Source of the DNA: Candidatus Akkermansia intestinavium
GTDB lineage: Bacteria; Verrucomicrobiota; Verrucomicrobiia; Verrucomicrobiales; Akkermansiaceae
Assembly: GCA_019115065.1 (NCBI GenBank)
Contig: DXEH01000014.1
Span: forward strand, 10,683 to 74,682
Direction: 5' to 3'
DNA length: 64,000 nt
Shown one piece after another: positions 40,445-42,822 of this stretch. Position 1 is the stretch's first letter. Every line of letters starts with the position of its first letter. The notes under the pieces were generated by a model. It saw only the letters and a program-made list of their open reading frames with translations. It was not told the DNA's origin and searched no databases. Position numbers and translations under genes: made by a program.

Positions 40445-40690
40445 ATGAAAAAGAAAGTATCAGGAAACGCCCGCATCACCATTCCCGCGGAACTCAAGAC
40501 CAAGCTGGCCATCGTAGCAGAAAAGAAAGGCATGTTCGTTGACGAAATGGCAGCCTACATCATCGAGGGCTACTTGAGCGATCTGAAGTTTATCGAACAG
40601 TATTCCACGAAGGAAGAAGAAAGCGACGATCCATTGGGCTTGCCAACCAGTTACCCTCCTTCATTCTTCTCGCCCTTTCATGACAGGTGA
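40445..40690 (+). CDS. Ribbon-helix-helix (Arc/CopG-like) protein
   Basis: The internal ATG gives 81 aa. ARITIPAELKTKLAIVAEKKGMFVDEMAAYIIEGYL fits the beta-alpha-alpha RHH pattern. The gene lies in low-GC DNA. Confidence 0.55.
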   Translation: MKKKVSGNARITIPAELKTKLAIVAEKKGMFVDEMAAYIIEGYLSDLKFIEQYSTKEEESDDPLGLPTSYPPSFFSPFHDR

Positions 40691-40786
40691 CCTGAGGCTA
40701 ACGAAAAAGCACTACAGCACAACGAGATTTTCAAAAAGAGGAAGACGAATTCAATTTACCTTCTGTTCAGAAGTAATGTTAGTACA

Positions 40787-41194
40787 ATGAACGCTTACAG
40801 GTACACCGTTATAGAGAACAAGGTAGATCCTCCAGAGCCTTCGCTCTTTCAAACATGCAAAGAGGCATGGGAAGGTGCGTTAGATGGTGAACTTGTATTC
40901 CGTGACGGCGAGTTGGTCACAGATCCAAAGAAGATAGAGTGTTATCAATTAGACATCCAAGACCTCAAGGAAGCGCTGAAGTACGCGATAAAAGACGAAG
41001 TGGGTTTCCGCCGAAGGGTTCGATCTTTCGTGAAAGCATATATGAAAGAGTCCCCTTTGAACGAAAGGTTAAACATTTCCCCGGCGCTTGTCGATTACAT
41101 TCAAAGGTTGGCTCACGCAAATAGCATGACCGAGGAGGACTTGCTCAAACGGATAATTCAAATAGCTTTCTACTGGAGAAGAGCTCGGGATTGA
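40787..41194 (+). CDS. Hypothetical protein with C-terminal RHH-like segment
   Basis: 135 aa. The C-terminus ERLNISPALVDYIQRLAHANSMTEEDLLKRIIQIAF fits the RHH pattern. A hand count gives about 45% GC. An intrinsic terminator follows. Confidence 0.5.
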   Translation: MNAYRYTVIENKVDPPEPSLFQTCKEAWEGALDGELVFRDGELVTDPKKIECYQLDIQDLKEALKYAIKDEVGFRRRVRSFVKAYMKESPLNERLNISPALVDYIQRLAHANSMTEEDLLKRIIQIAFYWRRARD

Positions 41195-41248: not shown

Positions 41249-41275
41249 AGCCCCGGTTTTCCGGGGCTTTTTTTT
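41249..41275 (+). terminator. Rho-independent terminator
   Basis: AGCCCCGG / CCGGGGCT form the stem with a TTTT loop, followed by T8. Confidence 0.7.
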
Positions 41276-41302: not shown

Positions 41303-41605
41303 TCAGAAGAGCGCGCCCTGGATGAGGGCTTGCTGGGTGGGGGCGGCGGCCGCGCGGGCGGTGGTGATGAGGGTGGACTGAAGGGCCGCGAGGCTGACTT
41401 CGTCGATGAGGATGCGGCGGCCTTTCCTGCCGCGGGGGCGCCAGGCAATGAGTTCTCCGGCGGCAATCATGCGCCGGATGGTCGCCGGCGAGTAACGCAG
41501 GGCGGCTGCGGCTTCTGCGACGGTGATGCCGCGCGGGGCTTTGAGAGTGCTGGGAGGGTCGACGGGCATGGAGTGATTGTAGCATAGTTGCTCGTTGCTT
41601 GTCAT
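41303..41605 (-). CDS. Excisionase-family (MerR-like) HTH DNA-binding protein
   Basis: ITVAEAAAALRYSPATIRRMIAAGELIAWRP..RRILIDEVSL matches the HTH_17 pattern. An alternative start is at 41569 (MPVDPP). The gene is divergent from the late operon. Confidence 0.65.
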   Translation of the reverse strand: MTSNEQLCYNHSMPVDPPSTLKAPRGITVAEAAAALRYSPATIRRMIAAGELIAWRPRGRKGRRILIDEVSLAALQSTLITTARAAAAPTQQALIQGALF

Positions 41606-41637: not shown

Positions 41638-41672
41638 CGCTCATTTACGCTCATAGCGCTCATAACGCTCAT
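41638..41672. promoter_or_regulatory. Four direct CGCTCAT heptamers at 10/9/9-bp spacing
   Basis: CGCTCAT occurs at 41638, 41648, 41657 and 41666. The array lies in the divergent region between the excisionase-like gene and the late/lysis operon. Confidence 0.5.
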
Positions 41673-41729
41673 TGGCAGCCACAGTGCCGACGTGCGCGCC
41701 GTGAAGCTGCTAGGATGGGCTCATCAAGC

Positions 41730-41802
41730 GCGTGTGTGGCGAAAGTCGGTATCGCGCCCGGCATCCGGCCGGGAGAAGCAGGTTCGAGTCCTGCCGCACG
41801 CT
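41730..41802 (+). tRNA. tRNA-like cloverleaf (anticodon position UCC = Gly) with atypical A33
   Basis: Hand fold: acceptor GCGTGTG/CGCACGC (7 bp, one G-U), U8, and D-arm GCGA/TCGC with A14, G18, G19 and A21. The anticodon stem is CCCGG/CCGGG with loop CAUCCGG. The variable loop is 4 nt. The T-arm GCAGG-TTCGAGT-CCTGC has the canonical T54 T55 C56 R57 A58 and G53-C61. No CCA is encoded. Confidence 0.5.
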
Positions 41803-41818
41803 TCACGGATCTGAGCTT

Positions 41819-42412
41819 ATGGGCAATCACATCATCATTGACATCGGCCACGCACGCGGTACGGGCGCGCGTGGGAATGGGCTGGAGGAGCATGAGCGCT
41901 GCGTGCTCCTTGCAGAGGCGTTGGAGACGGCTCTGCTCAAGCGCGGTTTTGGCGTGACGGTCGTGGATTTTCCGGACCTTTCCAACAGTGCCGACCTGAC
42001 GGCGGCCGTGGCGGCCGCGAATGCGCAGGGCTGCGATTTCGGTATTTCGCTGCACATGGATTCGGCTTCCAGGATTACAGGCTATCGACGCGTGACGTGT
42101 GAGGACGGGGAGACTCGCGAAACAGCGATTTATGAGCCGAATCCGGTGCCGCACGGGGCGCATTGCTGCTATTACTCGACGACCGGCGAGGCGATGGGGC
42201 GCAAGATTGCATCCCGATTGTGCGCTCTGCTGCCGGGGCGTGCGGAGCCGGTGGTGAGGCGCACGGATTTGTACGTGCTCAAGAAAACGGTGGCGCCGTG
42301 GGTGCTCTGCGAGTGCGGGTTTATCACGAACCCCGAAGATGCGGCGATGGCGCCTCAGCGCGTGGCCGAGGCGATTGCCGAGGGTGTGGCTGACTATTTC
42401 GCACAAGCATGA
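41819..42412 (+). CDS. N-acetylmuramoyl-L-alanine amidase (Amidase_3) endolysin
   Basis: The internal ATG at 41819 gives MGNHIIIDIGHARGTGARGNGLEEHE...GISLHMDS...VLCECGFITNPEDA, typical of Amidase_3. Confidence 0.85.
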   Translation: MGNHIIIDIGHARGTGARGNGLEEHERCVLLAEALETALLKRGFGVTVVDFPDLSNSADLTAAVAAANAQGCDFGISLHMDSASRITGYRRVTCEDGETRETAIYEPNPVPHGAHCCYYSTTGEAMGRKIASRLCALLPGRAEPVVRRTDLYVLKKTVAPWVLCECGFITNPEDAAMAPQRVAEAIAEGVADYFAQA

Positions 42413-42822
42413 AATCCCTGATCCTTGCTCTCCTGATGGGCGCAATGCCACTTGCCTGTGCCGATGAGGCGGGCGCGCCGGCGGACCCGATGCAGGAACC
42501 CAGCGGGCTGACCTGGTTTCAGGTGGCGGCGCTGCTGGCTGCTTTGGGTGGCGGCGGCGCGCTGGGTTGGCAGGGCTGCAAGAAGATGCAAGCGATGCGT
42601 ATCGAGCCGCAGCCGCTGGAGGTGCGCAGCGTGAGAGACCCGGCGACGCGTGCAGAGCTGGATGACTTCAAGAATGAGGTACGCGAGGACTTTAGGCGCG
42701 TGCACGCCCGGATCGACAAGAACGATCAGGTGACGGCTGAGATTCGCGGGCAGCTCGTTGTGATTGCCAACACTCAACAGAGGATTCTGAACCTTTTACT
42801 TAAGCAACAGCATGATGCGTGA
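42409..42822 (+). CDS. Lysis-cassette membrane protein (lipobox + TM + coiled coil; spanin/holin-like)
   Basis: It starts MKSLILALLMGAMPLAC, has the hydrophobic helix WFQVAALLAALGGGGALGW and a coiled-coil C-terminus. The start overlaps the amidase stop (ATGA). Confidence 0.4.
   Translation: MKSLILALLMGAMPLACADEAGAPADPMQEPSGLTWFQVAALLAALGGGGALGWQGCKKMQAMRIEPQPLEVRSVRDPATRAELDDFKNEVREDFRRVHARIDKNDQVTAEIRGQLVVIANTQQRILNLLLKQQHDA

Follow-up and report, generated by a model that had tools for sequence, protein, structure and literature searches.

Introduction

The uridine at position 33 of the anticodon loop (U33) is among the most conserved nucleotides in biology. In the E. coli thrU-tyrU-glyT-thrT-tufB operon, tRNAs including tRNA-Gly(UCC) are co-transcribed ahead of a protein gene, and their maturation sets the 5' end of the mRNA. 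Phage genomes, such as those of T4/T5-like phages and mycobacteriophages, may encode tRNAs that differ from the host isoacceptor, and it has been proposed that anticodon-loop changes let phage tRNAs evade host anticodon nucleases (PMC10264068) and that phage tRNAs overcome tRNA-targeting defence (PMC11555353). The tRNA-ProX family of Streptomyces and Kitasatospora naturally has A33 and mistranslates in vivo (PMC10404621, PMC11415595), and a 2024 review described the role of A33 in natural tRNAs as unexplored, giving the mistranslating tRNA-ProX as its examples (PMC11415595). In Staphylococcus, a non-proteinogenic tRNA-Gly that serves pentaglycine cell-wall synthesis lacks G18-G19 and has U18U19 or C18U19 (PMC4574755).

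Here, we report a phage tRNA-Gly which constitutes a small family in one clade of Mu-like Akkermansia prophages and which, independently of tRNA-ProX, makes a second natural family in which A33 is fixed. It resembles the phage-encoded tRNAs above in being located in a phage genome and in differing from the host isoacceptor, the differences being concentrated in the anticodon loop. It is unlike those of the T4/T5-like phages and mycobacteriophages in that it is carried by a small, temperate, transposable prophage of the Mu-like type, in that a single tRNA heads the lysis/late operon, and in that the near-universal U33 itself is replaced. In the reading that we favour, with a probability of about 0.6, this is a functional, late-expressed decoding tRNA-Gly with a remodelled anticodon loop that is selectively maintained. 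The family also bears on the current debate over why phages carry tRNAs.

Detection and cloverleaf structure of the tRNA gene

The window, that is, the whole stretch of 64,000 nucleotides of DNA from the chicken-gut Candidatus Akkermansia intestinavium that was analysed, contains a 73-nt cloverleaf, folded by inspection, at 41730-41802 on the plus strand. The tRNA and its immediate surroundings comprise the following features.

41730..41802, plus strand: tRNA-Gly(UCC) gene, 73 nt, no encoded CCA, 4-nt variable loop, discriminator U73 (ARAGORN, Rfam RF00005, 31 further copies)
41762..41768, plus strand: anticodon loop C32-A33-U34-C35-C36-G37-G38 (CAUCCGG), from the sequence, alignments and haplotype table
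41803..41818, plus strand: trailer of 16 nt from the tRNA to the endolysin ATG, from the sequence; once the tRNA 3' end is processed, it would serve the lysis mRNA as 5' UTR
41819..42412, plus strand: endolysin, an N-acetylmuramoyl-L-alanine amidase (Amidase_3; PF01520, E 9.1e-22; PHROG 435 endolysin, E 7.3e-29), the first protein gene of the late operon

A preliminary description of this DNA had claimed a complete cloverleaf of 73 nt with a 7-bp acceptor stem and nearly all universal tRNA features, located 16 nt upstream of the endolysin gene, and all of this was found in the sequence, where the tRNA ends at 41802 and the endolysin ATG is at 41819. The acceptor stem of 7 bp has one wobble pair (U6.G67), the D stem of 4 bp closes a 9-nt D loop holding A14, G18, G19 and A21, and the anticodon stem consists of five G-C pairs. 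The variable loop is AGAA (4 nt), the T stem of 5 bp includes G53-C61, the T loop is UUCGAGU and the discriminator is U73. The tertiary nucleotides U8, A14, G18, G19, A21, G53, U54, U55, C56, R57 (G57 in the window), A58 and C61 are present and invariant in the family.

When applied to the 64-kb window, ARAGORN called a single tRNA, tRNA-Gly(tcc), at exactly the coordinates of the cloverleaf. A sensitive Infernal scan of 351 nt with the Rfam tRNA model RF00005, whose gathering score is 29 bits, gave 48.8 bits (E 1.2e-9) over the full model (positions 1-71 of 71). The gene was found in this sensitive mode only: in gathering mode with fast filters it was not reported from either the 64-kb window or a 4-kb piece, while in a control the same mode recovered 8 of 8 canonical genus tRNAs, with scores of 57-72 bits. 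In a complete genome of this genus (G054), all 52 tRNAs scored higher than the phage tRNA, at 52-75 bits, and those of 71-75 nt, the ordinary length with no long extra arm, reached at least 57 bits. The phage tRNA is genuine under the full covariance model, yet it is a score outlier. Its copies in related phages scored 36.5-52.1 bits, every one above 29. Standard Rfam-filtered annotation thus overlooks this gene. That the preliminary description had recognised a tRNA-Gly with a non-canonical anticodon loop is borne out jointly by ARAGORN, Infernal and the comparative conservation described below.

Prophage, putative late promoter and operon

The prophage is of the Mu-like transposable type, encoding a MuB-like AAA protein (PHROG 296, E 1.9e-27), a weak transposase match, Mu Gam, Portal_Mu (E 3.2e-36), TerL, a head protease and a major head protein, and it carries a Mom-like gene (E 3.7e-37) at its right end. 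Prophage end repeats were looked for and none were found. The tRNA is phage-encoded, as it lies inside this phage genome and is distinct from the copy of the host. Relatives of the endolysin are annotated in Akkermansia MAGs, and the stretch is present in chicken-gut and bird metagenomes from about 12 studies. Within the endolysin ORF the Amidase_3 domain starts from residue 5 and relatives align from residues 1-5; since domain and alignments begin at the first residues, the tRNA region is non-coding.

A strong terminator at 41249-41268 closes the preceding plus-strand unit. Between this terminator and the tRNA the following features are found.

41303..41569, minus strand: divergent gene for an 88-aa HTH_17 (excisionase/AlpA-type) regulator (PF12728, E 4.9e-11)
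41638..41672, plus strand: four CGCTCAT direct repeats (starts 41638, 41648, 41657 and 41666), a candidate activator-binding array, putative in function
41708..41716, plus strand: extended -10-like element TGCTAGGAT with no -35, 13 nt before the tRNA 5' end, a putative promoter

TGCTAGGAT is invariant and at a fixed distance in all tRNA-bearing relatives, even those with unrelated sequence further upstream, and TGCTATCGT and TGCTAGCCT occupy the equivalent site in tRNA-less relatives. Similar repeat arrays (e.g. ATAACGCGCAT or TCATAAGTG units) together with TGCTAnnnT precede the endolysin genes of relatives even without a tRNA. From its sequence we infer that TGCTAGGAT is the late promoter, in which case the 5' leader would be only about 6-7 nt. 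The repeats and TGCTAGGAT (41638-41716) probably form an activator-dependent late (lys) promoter, as at Mu Plys, and the HTH_17 protein is a candidate for the late activator or for a switch protein. A sigma-70-like site (ATGACA-18-TACAAT, 41605-41576, minus strand) ends 6 nt before the HTH_17 ATG (41569), so the HTH_17 mRNA is probably leaderless.

The tRNA shape, the glycine identity nucleotides, the pattern of conservation and the genomic position are seen directly; transcription, processing, charging and decoding of the tRNA we infer, as the following steps. The tRNA would be transcribed from the activator-dependent extended -10 promoter at the head of the late operon (lysis, terminase, head); RNase P would cut the 5' end and an RNase Z-type activity the 3' end; CCA would be appended by the host CCA-adding enzyme; and the tRNA, glycylated by host GlyRS, would be used in translation late in infection. 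Maturation of the tRNA would by necessity sever the late mRNA as well, 14-16 nt ahead of the endolysin ATG, and decoding and processing roles are therefore not mutually exclusive. The arrangement is similar to that of thrU-tyrU-glyT-thrT-tufB in having a tRNA upstream of a protein gene on what would be the same transcript, but differs in that the latter is a host housekeeping operon with canonical tRNAs, whereas the former is a phage late operon and its tRNA has a non-canonical loop.

A low-GC gene pair at 40445-41194 encodes an 81-aa RHH protein and a 135-aa protein of no family, and the terminator at 41249-41268 is its own. The pair was considered as a tRNA-cleaving VapBC-type module and rejected, as no PIN or other toxin signal was present. 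In contigs with near-identical endolysin and tRNA (L247-L251), different called genes stand in its place. A 9-nt perfect inverted repeat (41699-41707 and 41800-41808) flanks the tRNA and takes in the final 3 nt of it; its occurrence is close to chance expectation, and its 5' arm (41699-41707) is not kept in the type-B relatives described below.

The anticodon loop and its deviations

The replacement of the near-universal U33 by A, as given in the preliminary description, is read directly in the sequence and was found in 32 of 32 family copies. By comparison, U33 was present in all 84 other ARAGORN tRNAs that passed parsing filters, drawn from the source genome, one same-genus genome and unrelated viral contigs (one apparent C was a parsing artefact). 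The phage tRNA accordingly lacks the U33 (U-turn) of a 7-nt anticodon loop. Within the loop, C32, A33, C35, C36 and G37 are invariant in the family, while position 34 is U or G and position 38 is G or A. At the tertiary pair 15:48 the window has A:A, and across haplotypes A15 or C15 is combined with A48, so the purine15:pyrimidine48 Levitt pair is found in none of them; the host tRNA-Gly(UCC) has A15:U48. The deviations from universal tRNA rules are thus A33 and the A:A at 15:48, position 37 being G and still a purine. The earlier reading of this DNA had overlooked the A:A pair as well as the invisibility of the gene in the default gathering mode of Rfam.

The preliminary description had further suggested that C32 and G38 could pair to leave a 5-nt loop. 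The nearest-neighbour model (ViennaRNA) predicts, on paper, the same: closure by C32-G38 is worth -4.0 kcal/mol, with the cloverleaf at -30.4 vs -34.4 kcal/mol. In bacterial tRNAs whose anticodons are rich in G/C, tRNA-Gly among them, positions 32 and 38 normally form a Watson-Crick-capable combination that weakens codon binding (PMC7293025). C32:G38 is hence a stronger version of a known 32-38 theme. As modelled, A33 and the predicted 5-nt loop should both weaken decoding. The loop may be deliberately non-standard, with A33 and G37 fixed, 32:38 being C:G or C:A, and the anticodon being UCC or GCC by lineage.

By the precedent of tRNA-ProX, A33 would be compatible with decoding (PMC10404621, PMC11415595). 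The two have in common the natural A33 and A15:A48, which work on the ribosome in ProX, and only these. In other regards tRNA-ProX differs in having C1:G72, A34, usually G21 and a dedicated ProRS isoform, and a dual identity in which a Pro acceptor is combined with Ala/Asn/Thr anticodons. The phage tRNA has G1-C72, U34 or G34 and A21 and is Gly in both acceptor and anticodon; no aaRS-like match, ProRS isoform included, was found among the approximately 30 prophage ORFs scanned. It is therefore not a member of the ProX family. The suggestion that this is a decoding-altered tRNA is plausible and now better founded, as A33 is fixed in 32/32 copies while 34 and 38 vary. An alternative anticodon, CCG (Arg) with the U-turn at U34, was rejected since there is no A20 and the Gly identity set is complete.

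Family of copies and natural variation

A protein search identified closer endolysins of 97, 83, 78 and 67% identity, and their contigs were examined. In 31 further metagenome contigs (31 different run/assembly accessions) the tRNA is located 14-16 nt before the endolysin ATG, which makes a family of 32 copies, including that of the window, in 12 haplotypes. Type A, the window-like lineage, has the anticodon UCC, and type B (L258-L263, 83% endolysin) has GCC. Variation in the family is as follows.

Position 6: U or C; pair with G67 kept in both
Position 15: A or C; D loop
Positions 16 and 17: substitution and indel; D loop
Position 34: U or G; wobble base, Gly anticodon either way
Position 38: G or A (A in three contigs); 32:38 changes from C:G to C:A
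Position 43: G or U (one haplotype); 27-43 pair broken
Position 46: A or G; variable loop
Position 50: C or U; pair with G64 kept in both
Position 51: A or G; pair with U63 kept in both
Position 60: U or C; T loop

No variation across the family was found in the identity pairs, U73, G18-G19 or the T-loop core. Across the 21 pairs of the 7/4/5/5-bp cloverleaf in eight haplotypes, pairing is kept in 99.4% of stem cells. Four stem positions vary, three of them without loss of the pair (U.G/C-G, C-G/U.G and A-U/G.U), and all changes are one-sided. As no double-sided change occurs, the structure is supported by conservation and by substitutions compatible with pairing, and not by compensatory covariation. 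Only positions 34 and 38 vary within the anticodon loop, the change at 34 yielding another Gly isoacceptor.

Three contigs (L245 at 1845-1917, L270 and L274) harbour tRNA haplotypes that are mosaics of type-A and type-B segments. Crossovers have thus occurred inside the tRNA, and this conserved sequence is also a recombination point between phage modules. The tRNA has been destroyed in L246 (78% endolysin), in which a 46-nt deletion between short ATC repeats (2026-2075), reaching from C35 to 8 nt into the trailer, leaves the 5' half of the tRNA fused to the endolysin leader; the tRNA is hence dispensable at least there. The relatives with 67% endolysin identity (L254-L257) are without the tRNA and have a longer leader with a GC-rich hairpin instead. 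Loss in the former and absence in the latter indicate that the tRNA is an accessory, lineage-specific insertion.

Glycine identity and selection

G1-C72, C2-G71, G3-C70, U73, C35 and C36 are all present and invariant in every copy; these are the bacterial GlyRS identity elements as established for E. coli tRNA-Gly. The 4-nt variable loop is found also in the tRNA-Gly genes of the host genus. Most host tRNA genes lack an encoded CCA, so the host must add it. The divergence between the lineages further allows the conservation of the tRNA to be compared with that of its surroundings, with the following identities between types A and B.

tRNA: 67/73 (92%)
Endolysin, all nucleotides: 75-79%
Endolysin, four-fold sites: 61-71%
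Upstream 120 nt: 60%
Trailer: 9/16 (56%)

At a neutral rate of 0.35, the probability of six or fewer differences in the 73 nt of the whole tRNA is 1e-7. The 17-nt anticodon arm has one change between the lineages, whereas about six would be expected at the neutral rate (P(<= 1) ~0.007). For the 7-nt anticodon loop by itself the value is not significant (P 0.23), and selection on A33 itself is not demonstrable by this measure. An identity of 92% in the tRNA against 61-71% at four-fold sites and 56-60% in flanking non-coding DNA indicates purifying selection, although recombinants crossing over inside the tRNA mean that part of the high identity could be due to recent exchange. That A33 was kept in all diverged lineages while 34 and 38 changed argues that it is at least harmless and perhaps useful.

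These values bear on whether the gene could be a decaying tRNA pseudogene or a functionless hitch-hiking remnant. Its covariance score is low for a tRNA, it departs from the universal U33 and from the 15:48 pair, L246 has lost it by deletion and it is missing from most relatives, all as would be expected of such a remnant. Decay is nevertheless very improbable given that the tRNA is 92% identical between lineages in which about one third of neutral sites differ, that a single stem pair is broken in 1 of the 12 haplotypes, and that the deviations are all common to diverged lineages instead of scattered.

The same comparison bears on whether the tRNA shape could be a cis element only, in which RNase P and RNase Z would recognise an uncharged structure that never enters the ribosome and that provides either a short 5' UTR of 14-16 nt or a protective 5' structure. 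A processing signal had been among the earlier proposals, and it is compatible with the position of the tRNA as the first element of the operon, just 3' of the conserved -10-like element and at a fixed short distance from the ATG. The loop moreover deviates exactly at the decoding-critical site (A33 and the predicted pentaloop), the GC-rich hairpin in the same leader of tRNA-less relatives suggests that the requirement is for a structured leader of any sort, and L246 tolerates loss of the tRNA. RNase P and RNase Z are not known to require the anticodon arm. That arm is nonetheless the most conserved part of the molecule, which processing as the sole role would leave unexplained. The invariance of the GlyRS identity nucleotides, including C35, C36 and U73, is also contrary to a pure processing signal, as is the single between-lineage loop change, which falls on the wobble base and yields another Gly anticodon. 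The Rfam model for mascRNA-type tRNA-like processing elements (RF01684) gave only 17.6 bits against a cut-off of 42.5, so the tRNA is not assigned to that family. We consider an exclusively cis-acting role unlikely, and the conserved Gly identity nucleotides and anticodon arm favour a charged, decoding-competent tRNA over it.

Host glycine tRNAs and codon usage

The preliminary description had also proposed that the tRNA supplies a codon rare in the host. Initially consistent with this, ARAGORN lists no tRNA-Gly(UCC) of the host's own, but the notion of a host without one was discarded when BLAST located a canonical copy with the loop CUUCCAA in the source genome (contig C8, 14836-14899). This copy is truncated by the contig end and is for that reason omitted by ARAGORN; without BLAST, the genome would seem dependent on the prophage tRNA. 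The complete genome of the genus has tRNA-Gly with GCC (two copies), UCC and CCC. The phage tRNA is identical to the genus tRNA-Gly(UCC) at 44 of 71 positions and was thus not recently copied from the host.

GGA, the rarest Gly codon of the host, makes up 9.7% of its Gly codons and 13.1% of those of the prophage, a 1.36-fold enrichment. As GCA (1.82-fold), ACA (2.07-fold) and CTA (2.54-fold) are enriched more than GGA, this reflects a general GC3 effect that is not specific to glycine. The commonest host Gly codon is GGC, with about 56% of Gly codons, and the GCC allele should read it. The case for rare-codon supply is consequently weak, given the UCC tRNA of the host itself, the lack of glycine specificity in the GGA excess and a GCC allele that should read the commonest Gly codons.

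Three further ARAGORN 'tRNAs' in the source genome, at C22:113-185 (Ser-gga without a T-loop motif), C40:38325-38423 (a 99-nt His) and C65:53396-53497 (with a 4-base anticodon), are GC-rich and look false-positive.

Possible roles of the remodelled loop

The existence of both UCC and GCC alleles, contrary to a codon-specific supply, raises the question of a tRNA-Gly that works outside normal decoding, charged or uncharged. It could be a decoy or replacement refractory to a nuclease, acetyltransferase or other toxin that targets tRNA-Gly during infection, or it could be a non-ribosomal glycine donor. The loop is remodelled (A33, G37 and G38 or A38) while the body and identity elements are kept, and nuclease-escaping and defence-overcoming phage tRNAs have been put forward in published proposals (PMC10264068, PMC11555353). 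A scan of about 30 prophage ORFs, part of the gene set, against Pfam and PHROG revealed no tRNA-targeting enzyme, which speaks against such a role. We know of no toxin targeting tRNA-Gly in Akkermansia, of no cognate nuclease for this tRNA, and of no glycine interpeptide bridges in Akkermansia. The staphylococcal cell-wall tRNA-Gly is similar in being an extra tRNA-Gly(UCC) with unusual features, the link to the cell wall here being only adjacency to an endolysin gene, but the phage tRNA keeps G18-G19 and a standard T-loop and so does not belong with it (PMC4574755). Altogether, a function apart from decoding appears distinctly improbable.

The fixation of A33, together with G37 and a 32:38 pair that can be tuned, invites a speculative explanation that we regard as doubtful. 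It might constitute a counter-defence tRNA, unrecognised by an anticodon-loop nuclease or modifier of the host or a rival which disables cellular tRNA-Gly during infection, or alternatively a deliberately weak or slippery decoder that tunes late translation. If the counter-defence explanation is true, the UCC allele would stand in for one isoacceptor and the GCC allele for another.

The family offers natural alleles at 34 (U/G) and 38 (G/A) in a tRNA whose acceptor and anticodon agree on glycine, and in a defined and inducible setting at the head of the late operon of a Mu-like prophage in Akkermansia, a genus of wide interest. This allele set is a ready-made comparison for the effects of A33 on decoding, modification and sensitivity to anticodon nucleases.

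Distribution and mosaicism

No tRNA was found within 2.5-3 kb of endolysin relatives at 27-60% identity (12 loci from the bacterial family, 9 from genomes and 48 from IMG/VR), most of these relatives being at 43-60% identity with two distant outliers. Three search patterns in IMG/VR returned no copy of the tRNA, and the 120 matches to the 15-nt arm pattern were chance matches, none of them in a tRNA. JGI metagenome contigs held only an unrelated groundwater tRNA-Gln with the same arm sequences, and INPHARED phages gave no match for a 2-kb region and only generic tRNA similarity for the tRNA. BLAST of 120 same-genus genomes gave no full-length relative, and in 300 genomes of the bacterial family an 861-nt region query gave distant endolysin matches only.

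Read comparison showed an identical tRNA in one independent study (X3), and the tRNA is covered by other runs too. In a chicken-gut metatranscriptome run (X19), contigs were 90-95% similar to parts of the endolysin and the next gene (42125-42769), the tRNA not being covered; these may reflect transcription of a related phage or carried-over DNA. Two independent chicken-gut runs hold contigs that agree with the window at 98-99% between 41303 and 42825, beyond which the sequence on either side is unrelated. As the match is confined to this interval, the regulator, promoter, tRNA, endolysin and next gene make up a mosaic module common to different phages.
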